The notes under the pieces were generated by a model. It did not search any database and had not been told where the DNA came from. It saw only the letters and a list, made by a program, of their open reading frames with translations. A stretch of 64,000 nt of DNA from Escherichia coli (GTDB taxonomy: Bacteria > Pseudomonadota > Gammaproteobacteria > Enterobacterales > Enterobacteriaceae): NCBI RefSeq assembly GCF_003018255.1, contig NZ_CP027440.1. One strand, 5' to 3'. Both the position numbers and the translations under genes were made by a program. This document shows, piece after piece, positions 62,812 through 64,000 of the stretch. Positions within the stretch are counted from its first letter, which is position 1. The number at the start of each line of letters is the position of its first letter.

Positions 62812-63109
62812 TACGCATTTGAAACGCCTGCAACGGTGAACAGTAATATATTTAAGCCCCAGGGAGTGGGGCGACAATGGTTTGCTAATGAATGATCCTG
62901 AACTTTATAATCTCCAGGCATAATTTCCAGGGGATTATTTGAGAGAAATACACAAAAGTGAGTTTTAACAAAGGTATTTATCAAGCCATAAATGTGACCT
63001 GCTTCGGATAAAAAAGATTAAGTATCGAAAAACCAATGATCCTCTTGCTGATGGTTATCAACAGTAATTAAGATGTGATTTGTTTTTCCGTAATCGCGAA
63101 AATATTGCC

Positions 63110-63520
63110 ATGACCATAAAAGAAAAAATCTCACAAAAATATCCCCATGCTTCCTTTTGTACTTTTGGCGATTCAGCAGCGTTGGCCGATCACCTCGCAA
63201 CGTTGATTGCGACTGGTGTTAAAACAGCTTCCTGTGGTTCGCTGGCGGGATGTATTGAAGACAACGCATTTCCGCTGATTGGTGAGTATAAGATTGTAGA
63301 AAATAGCCGTGGTGAGCCTGTCTGTGTTATCAGAGTGATTGGCCTGCATTTACTGCGCTTTTCTGATGTCTCCGCGGAGCTTGCCCGTAAGGAAGGTGAA
63401 GGTAACCTCAGTCTTGAATATTGGCGTAATGAACACCGTCGTTTTTTCCAGGCAGAAGGATGCTATTCACCCGAAATGGACGTTATCTTTGAAGAATATG
63501 CCCTTATTGACGTTGTGTAG
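63110..63520 (+). CDS. ASCH-domain-like small protein (hypothetical)
   Basis: 136 aa from MTIKEKISQKYP; domain assignment from weak recognition only. Confidence 0.5.
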   Translation: MTIKEKISQKYPHASFCTFGDSAALADHLATLIATGVKTASCGSLAGCIEDNAFPLIGEYKIVENSRGEPVCVIRVIGLHLLRFSDVSAELARKEGEGNLSLEYWRNEHRRFFQAEGCYSPEMDVIFEEYALIDVV

Positions 63521-63770
63521 ATAACTATTTTTCTACGCGAAATAAGCTCTCAAACATAAAGTATCGCTAATTTTGTTTATTTTGCTATTTTTTACGTGAT
63601 GATTGTCACACTTATTGTTACTGCCCGTTTTGTCCATATTTATAACCAAATTTTTAATAGCTGCCTGAAATAGGGCTGTTTATTCTGCATAAAAATATTC
63701 GAAAATTCTTATTCTCTCCAGCGCGCTAATTTGGGCGAACACTTCCTGACTACCCTGCAATGAGGCTGAA

Positions 63771-64000
63771 ATGATGAATAAACGTTTTGTTATCAATATG
63801 GTGTCTTCGCTGTTATTAGGCGCTGCGCTAATTTCTGCGCCGCTCCAGGCAGCGGAAAAAGTCGTGGTGAATATCTCTAAAGTCGATGGTATGCCGTGGT
63901 TTAATCGCATGGGCGAAGGTGTGGTTGAGGCGGGTAAAGCCTTTGGTGTTAATGCGTCACAGGTGGGGCCTTCAAGTACTGATGCTCCGCAACAGGTTAA
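63771..64000 (+). CDS. Periplasmic substrate-binding protein of a sugar-type ABC transporter, 5' part; continues beyond window
   Basis: SD gagg then ATG; signal peptide MMNKRFVINMVSSLLLGAALISAPLQAAEK; type-I PBP-like N-terminus. Confidence 0.6.
   Translation, partial: MMNKRFVINMVSSLLLGAALISAPLQAAEKVVVNISKVDGMPWFNRMGEGVVEAGKAFGVNASQVGPSSTDAPQQV

Follow-up and report, generated by a model that had tools for sequence, protein, structure and literature searches.

The sequence under study lies at the end of the window, the whole 64,000-nucleotide stretch of Escherichia coli DNA that was analysed, and contains the following genes and spacers:

61429–62811, plus strand: yahJ, 460 aa, amidohydrolase family and kin to cytosine deaminases; the conserved left flank.
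62812–63109, no strand: AT-rich spacer separating yahJ from the ASCH gene, 298 bp, 36.9% GC.
63110–63520, plus strand: ASCH gene, 136 aa, single domain, DUF984/YhfF-like subgroup.
63521–63770, plus strand: spacer between the ASCH gene and aauA, 250 bp, 34% GC, containing the putative aau promoter region.
63771/63774–64000, plus strand: 5′ part of aauA, first 75–76 codons; the gene continues past the window end.

The yahJ product matched Pfam Amidohydro_3 and the NCBIfam model NF005312 (716 bits, cut-off 447), and its name is that given by RefSeq to the matching gene in matching genomes. The GC content was 56.3% in yahJ, 45% in the ASCH gene, and 48% in aauA, with a window average of 48.8%, and was mildly low (45–52%) across the variable locus. 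An earlier note on this DNA had described about 300 bp of AT-rich spacer after yahJ, followed by genes for a 136-aa ASCH-like protein and, cut off by the window end, a sugar-binding protein of an ABC transporter. The measured spacer agrees with this description, the product of the second gene matched Pfam ASCH (PF04266) with an E-value of 2e-21 and 77 bits, above the cut-off of 21.2, and that of the third gene matched Peripla_BP_4. The ATG at 63110 is the start codon common to ASCH homologues of about a dozen genera and is also the RefSeq start.

In the first spacer, a hairpin with a 6-bp stem (62856–62872) ends the first 61 nt (62812–62872), which are the part retained in K-12, and its folding was no better than that of shuffled sequences (z = −0.17). 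A promoter-like site at 62882–62911 (TTGCTA-18-TATAAT) was not above chance, with two sites found in the promoter scan and 3.0 expected by chance. The terminator scan found none, and a scan of 62700–64000 against Rfam at E ≤ 1 returned no RNA family.

All 75 aligned residues of the visible part of the binding protein were identical to those of crystallised AauA (PDB 9I1M, chain A; entry title “Sugar-binding protein”). The full-length orthologue in a complete E. coli genome that carries the full allele (L001) matched 9I1M with an E-value of 2.5e-212 and the Klebsiella structural-genomics entry 3D02 with an E-value of 1.9e-187. On these matches, the gene that follows the ASCH gene is aauA, the first gene of the published aauABCD locus. 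This locus encodes the “accessory L-arabinose uptake” (Aau) ABC transporter on O-island 17 (OI-17) of EHEC, genes Z0415–Z0419, and was described by Cottam et al. (Nat Commun 2024 and 2025; PMC11127945, PMC12307932). A crystal structure of AauA with bound D-ribulose was reported together with ITC data, and six residues contact the ligand: Lys37, Trp43, Glu118, His167, Glu196, and Ser223 (PMC12307932). The codons for Lys37 (63879–63881) and Trp43 (63897–63899) are within the window. Those for Glu118, His167, Glu196, and Ser223 fall past its end, and these residues were counted in the alignment of the L001 orthologue, which carries equivalents of all six contacts (K37, W43, E118, H167, E196, and S223). 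The visible product begins with a signal peptide whose cleavage is predicted between LQA and AE.

The RefSeq annotation of the same region reads yahJ, “ASCH domain-containing protein”, and “autoinducer 2 ABC transporter substrate-binding protein”. Taken at face value, the last name would make the binding protein an LsrB-type autoinducer-2 (AI-2) receptor and the operon an AI-2 importer. The protein does share distant similarity with LsrB structures (E ~1e-21 to 1e-23) and the Peripla_BP_4 fold class, and both Aau and LsrACDB are CUT2-type systems with one ATPase and two permeases. However, it scored only 110.7 bits against the NCBIfam LsrB model NF011937, for which the cut-off is 384, and scored higher, 135.3 bits, against the RhaS model TIGR02637, also below that model’s own cut-off of 342; identity as the rhamnose-binding protein RhaS was rejected on the latter score. 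The lsrK, lsrR, lsrF, and lsrG genes that partner the Lsr transporter are absent nearby, where yahJ, the ASCH gene, and yahK flank the operon and no kinase or repressor gene is present, and Aau is regulated by AraC, not LsrR. Since the D-ribulose crystal complex and the ITC data were obtained with a near-identical EHEC protein (PMC12307932), we regard import of AI-2 as extremely unlikely, and the RefSeq label is wrong for aauA.

Published work on EHEC describes how this transporter functions. AauA binds D-ribulose with a Kd of ~2 µM and L-arabinose with a Kd of ~0.6 mM (PMC12307932, PMC11127945). The aau genes are induced by L-arabinose only and require AraC, imported D-ribulose is phosphorylated by AraB, and Aau gives EHEC a ~100-fold competitive advantage in the streptomycin-treated mouse gut (PMC11127945, PMC12307932). 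Aau thereby couples L-arabinose sensing to D-ribulose scavenging, as those papers have already established (PMC11127945, PMC12307932). The region analysed here resembles EHEC Aau in its 75 identical AauA residues, including Lys37 and Trp43, in its chromosomal site (after yahJ and the ASCH gene and, in relatives, before yahK), and in the ~250–300 bp upstream of aauA, which correspond to the region that holds the AraC-dependent promoter in EHEC. No difference of substance was found; the window belongs to a non-O157 lineage and its DNA is ~98% identical. The content is thus already known: it is the common full form of the Aau/OI-17 locus described in those papers. By analogy, AauA of the present genome would be exported to the periplasm, where it would bind D-ribulose tightly and L-arabinose weakly, and AauBCD would bring the sugar into the cell. 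Transcription of aau would need AraC and L-arabinose, and the D-ribulose would then be phosphorylated by AraB.

The spacer upstream of aauA was searched for sites that might underlie this regulation. In EHEC, the Paau reporter comprised ~300 bp upstream of Z0415 and was dependent on L-arabinose and AraC (PMC11127945); this fragment corresponds to window positions ~63470–63770. A candidate set of sites lies within it:

63595–63610, plus strand: CRP-like site CGTGATGATTGTCACA, one mismatch to TGTGA-N6-TCACA.
63622–63638, plus strand: AraC I1-like half-site TGCCCGTTTTGTCCATA, start-to-start distance from the CRP-like site 27 nt.
63643–63659, plus strand: AraC I2-like half-site TAACCAAATTTTTAATA, starting 21 nt after the I1-like site, as a direct repeat.

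These sites suggest a putative ParaBAD-like aau promoter within 63521–63770, in which the CRP site (63595–63610) is followed by the AraC half-sites (63622–63659). As in ParaBAD of K-12, the order is CRP, I1, I2, and the 17-bp half-sites are direct repeats phased by 21 bp, whereas the offset from CRP to I1 is 27 nt at aau and 29 nt in ParaBAD. Taken singly, the motifs occur at chance level, with two sites for the CRP-like motif in 64 kb and a chance frequency for the AraC half-site motif in the 64-kb window, so only the composite, phased arrangement and its recurrence across genera carry weight. We defined a composite motif as a CRP site with at most two mismatches followed exactly 27 nt later by an AraC half-site with at most two mismatches. 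This composite occurred once in the 64-kb window. Among 80 loci drawn from many genera, 35 had it no more than 400 nt ahead of the aauA homologue and three more had it 420–455 nt upstream; elsewhere in 2.9 Mb it occurred only four times. Because the arrangement is kept upstream of aauA homologues in so many genera, AraC control probably travels with the cassette. This comparison gives good support to CRP/AraC control as a conserved property of the cassette across genera and to the sites listed above as candidates for it. The control would appear to be inherited with the cassette across Enterobacterales, rather than being a co-option specific to EHEC.

The distribution of the arrangement within the species was determined by megablast of 61400–64000 against 5426 complete E. 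coli genomes. The whole stretch was found in 2212 of them (41%), and yahJ without the remainder in a further ~2880. The ASCH-specific 600 bp (62873–63472), required at ≥80% coverage, and the transporter-specific 4.6 kb were each found in 2213 of the 5426 genomes, and the pieces that make up the K-12 scar described below were matched alone in about 2820 genomes. Essentially two haplotypes therefore occur between yahJ and yahK in E. coli. In L001, the gene order of the full allele is yahJ, ASCH gene, binding protein, ATPase, two permeases, and yahK, and the complete genome nearest to ours (JNE112863), which is 99.0% identical over 58000–64000, has the same order. As the window ends at about codon 76 of aauA, these nearest relatives are the basis for expecting that aauBCD and then yahK follow in this genome. 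E. coli genomes differ from one another by 1–2% in the locus, similar to their divergence in the flanks. Phylogroups E, B1, and D are enriched for aau, B2 carries it in part, and A mostly lacks it (PMC11127945, PMC12307932).

The earlier note had expected yahK after yahJ on the model of K-12 and had suggested a strain-variable junction here. Both points hold: in MG1655, yahK lies 376 bp downstream of yahJ and neither of the two genes is present, and the order seen in the window, absent from MG1655, is shared by the 2212 genomes. What these genomes qualify is any wider sense of the difference, since reference genomes with the same two genes at this position are common. The arrangement is ordinary for the species and differs only from K-12.

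We then aligned the K-12 yahJ–yahK spacer to the window and to L001 using blastn, which resolved it into five pieces. The first is 62 nt matching window 62812–62872, and the second is ~23 nt with no assigned match. The third is 70 nt corresponding to window 63473–63542, which comprises the last 48 nt of the ASCH gene, with its stop codon, and the following 22 nt (94.3% identity over 70 nt to MG1655, L003 4594–4663). The fourth, of ~63 nt, aligns loosely to the start of the ASCH–aauA spacer, up to TCACACTTA. The fifth is 158 nt that match the end of the last permease gene, aauD, and the spacer leading to yahK. It retains the final 72 nt of aauD, which translate to ALWGTLLLCFIQARGMLGLDRVV followed by the stop codon; this is the exact C-terminus of AauD, conserved in the orthologues of Klebsiella, Franconibacter, and Mangrovibacter. 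In a K-12-type record, this stub carries the RefSeq flag of a partial pseudogene. The corresponding segments of the window are:

62873–63472, no strand: first segment absent from K-12-type genomes, 600 bp, most of the first spacer plus ASCH codons 1–121.
63473–63542, no strand: ASCH 3′ remnant retained in K-12, 70 bp.
63615–63618, no strand: approximate left breakpoint of the transporter deletion in K-12-type E. coli and in Escherichia sp. E2593, from pairwise alignments and blastn, just after the CRP-like site.

Because the seemingly empty site of K-12 holds the 3′ ends of two genes, it is the product of deletion. The K-12-type allele shows two deletions, one of 600 bp that removed most of the ASCH gene and one of ~4.5 kb that runs from the promoter core through most of aauD. 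They are physically separate, ~100 bp apart, and the right breakpoint of the second lies in aauD, beyond the window. We conclude, with a probability of roughly 0.9, that what follows yahJ is the left end of the E. coli aau locus and that the K-12-type allele arose from it by deletion.

This account differs from the published one, in which the locus is a horizontally acquired pathogenicity island and OI-17 is termed EHEC-specific (PMC11127945, PMC12307932). A rival reading, which the published view would favour, is that an island was inserted at an empty yahJ–yahK site in the lineage of this strain and that K-12 represents the ancestral empty state. A GC content somewhat below that of the flanks would fit such an insertion, as would the unrelated surroundings of aauABCD homologues in genera such as Klebsiella and Yersinia and the recovery, in a scan of species representatives, of one Escherichia locus and no Salmonella locus. 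The stubs of the ASCH gene and aauD at the K-12 site are, however, in-frame 3′ ends, and they exclude K-12 as an ancestral empty site. An integrase, IS element, tRNA, and flanking direct repeats were all absent from the locus. The marks of a genomic island (a clean empty site, mobility genes or repeats, and atypical composition) were not found, the GC content being only mildly low. The low divergence of the locus, matching that of its flanks, and the collinearity with yahK of the locus in an Escherichia ~10% diverged (below) also speak against such an insertion. We consider insertion at an empty site very unlikely. The OI-17 “island” would be better termed a locus lost by deletion in K-12 and in most phylogroup A and B2 strains.

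The age of the locus was examined in more distant genomes. L030, a genome labelled E. coli and ~10–11% diverged, has the order pdeL, ASCH 3′ stub, aauABCD, yahK, and yahL, and is collinear with L001 from the 3′ end of the ASCH gene to yahL (89.7% identity over 6987 nt; flanks 84–89%). Since the locus stands next to yahK in this genome as well, its presence beside yahK should be older than E. coli proper, and we infer that the locus predates the species. Escherichia sp. E2593, a cryptic-clade genome whose yah genes are ~95% identical, has yahJ, an intact ASCH gene, a scar, and yahK. The junctions left by loss of the transporter in E2593 and in K-12 coincide to within ~10 nt, with an indel of 6–9 nt between them, and the K-12 scar is 97% identical to the E. 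coli full allele compared with 86% to the E2593 scar. Given this match of junctions, the deletion allele may predate the split, may have crossed it by recombination, or may recur at a hotspot; the two deletions may thus share a common origin or be recurrent.

Beyond Escherichia, aauA homologues were scanned in one genome per species and 80 loci were kept, of which one was from Escherichia (L030) and none from Salmonella. The identity of the cassette proteins was 90–92% in Klebsiella pneumoniae, Franconibacter, and Mangrovibacter, and 55–86% in Yersinia, Sodalis, Providencia, Pasteurellaceae, Vibrio, and others. Where checked, in Klebsiella and Yersinia, the neighbours of the cassette were unrelated to those in E. 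coli, and no linked kinase or regulator was found beside it in these two genera. The low GC content and the scan yield of one Escherichia and no Salmonella locus fit an older horizontal acquisition and limit the word “ancestral” to E. coli with its closest relatives. The Escherichia lineage may plausibly have received the locus by horizontal transfer long ago, ahead of the diversification of E. coli, and such an acquisition is compatible with later loss by deletion. A more speculative and rather doubtful extension is that the full and deleted alleles form an old polymorphism, kept by niche-dependent selection on AraC-controlled scavenging of D-ribulose, and that the co-lost ASCH protein is a new small amidohydrolase acting on a modified nucleobase.

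Relative to the literature, the additions made here are modest: the two-deletion scar of K-12, a locus that appears to predate E. coli, a predicted conserved promoter, the wrong AI-2 label, and an ASCH gene of an uncharacterised subgroup that seems to be an unrelated neighbour of aau. Literature searches gave nothing useful on yahJ/yahK with an ABC transporter or on Z0414.

The last of these points was weighed against the idea that the ASCH gene works together with aauABCD as a single unit, in which the ASCH protein would, for example, process the transported compound or one derived from it. The near-perfect co-occurrence of the two segments among the 5426 genomes (2213 versus 2213), despite their separate deletions, is what such a unit would produce, but the tight linkage of deletions ~100 bp apart is enough to account for it. 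Across genera the two come apart. None of the 78 non-Escherichia aauA loci had an ASCH homologue within 9 kb, and the closest non-Escherichia ASCH homologues, found in Yersinia canariae and Pseudenterobacter with 63–64% identity, have unrelated genes around them. They are also separable within Escherichia: E2593 has lost the transporter but kept the ASCH gene, and L030 has kept the transporter but has no intact ASCH gene. Paau, moreover, is situated 3′ of the ASCH gene. A shared function is thus quite unlikely, and the absence of ASCH genes near aauA in other genera points to the ASCH gene as a neighbour and not a component of the cassette.

The ASCH protein itself matched no NCBIfam family and no PADLOC defence model. 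Residues invariant in its family include K38, T39, C42, S44, PVCVIR (70–75), KEGEG (94–98), W105, and H109. Its sequence relatives in the PDB were 1T62 and 3S9X. An AlphaFold model (pLDDT 95.2) was searched using Foldseek, and the nearest structures were again 3S9X and 1T62, both uncharacterised structural-genomics proteins (TMq 0.82–0.86), followed by E. coli YqfB (9KYF/9KYH, E 1e-4) and then a Zymomonas ASCH ribonuclease. With YqfB, an N4-acetylcytidine amidohydrolase, the protein shares the ASCH/PUA-like fold (TM 0.63 when normalised to the query, 0.83 when normalised to the target), and its K38, S41, and E95, a Lys-x-x-Ser/Thr motif with an acidic residue, line up with the YqfB triad K21/T24/E74. 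BLASTP gave no alignment between the two; hhalign gave a probability of 0.8%, and in that insignificant alignment K38/S41/E95 fell on K21/T24/E74 and the oxyanion residue Arg26 on Gly43. The fold and the conserved Lys, Ser, and Glu residues tentatively suggest that the ASCH protein could be a small PUA-like protein that hydrolyses or binds a modified nucleobase or nucleoside. It differs from YqfB in being 33 residues longer and in having Gly43 at the position of the oxyanion Arg26, and it groups with the uncharacterised DUF984-type proteins 1T62 and 3S9X.

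The source of the window is an uncommon E. coli lineage. Over window positions 40000-60000, the best match among complete RefSeq genomes was JNE112863, with 99.5% identity; only six complete RefSeq genome records reached at least 99% identity, and the majority of genomes showed 95–99%. No complete RefSeq genome identical to the window was found.

A tandem array is located between yahG and yahI, at the place where the K-12 annotation has yahH, a doubtful ORF.

60153-60419: tandem array, 93-bp unit, 2.9 copies, 92% matches

The repeat unit is a REP-like palindromic sequence (GCCGGATGCG...CCTTATCCGGCCTAC), and the long ORFs on either strand of the array are probably repeat artefacts.

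L030 (NZ_JAATUR010000022.1, 6681-9000), a locus from a genome labelled E. coli, shows the region in a third structural state. Because its identity to E. coli in this region is only approximately 84–90%, the genome probably belongs to another Escherichia species or clade. Here the yahB–yahJ genes are absent and the ASCH gene (the 136-aa ORF that lies between yahJ and aauA in the window) lacks its 5′ part; pdeL directly adjoins the remaining 3′ stub of this gene and aauA. The bet genes between ykgG and pdeL also appear to be absent.

The periplasmic binding protein AauA (L001 16376-17359 and equivalent annotations; window 63771-64000, 5′ part of the gene) carries the RefSeq product name “autoinducer 2 ABC transporter substrate-binding protein”, which looks like a propagated misannotation. 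AauA scored 110.7 bits against the LsrB family model, far under its 384-bit cut-off, and a crystal structure with bound D-ribulose exists for a near-identical EHEC protein. The 4.7-kb contig SFEK01000152.1 (L004, entire contig, 1-4748), filed in a “Bacteroidales bacterium” metagenome-assembled genome, encodes an AauABCD transporter with 99–100% protein identity to that of E. coli, and almost certainly comes from E. coli, having been binned into the Bacteroidales MAG by mistake.

A CRP-like site combined with an AraC-like half-site occurs a second time in Limnobaculum, Budvicia and Leminorella. This conserved composite lies downstream of the aauA homologue at a distance of approximately 6 kb and is on the opposite strand.

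near 15430-15540 of L022, L024, L039 and L040 (the loci of these genera), minus strand: second composite

This composite near the cassette may mark a further AraC-controlled promoter, possibly one serving ara genes.
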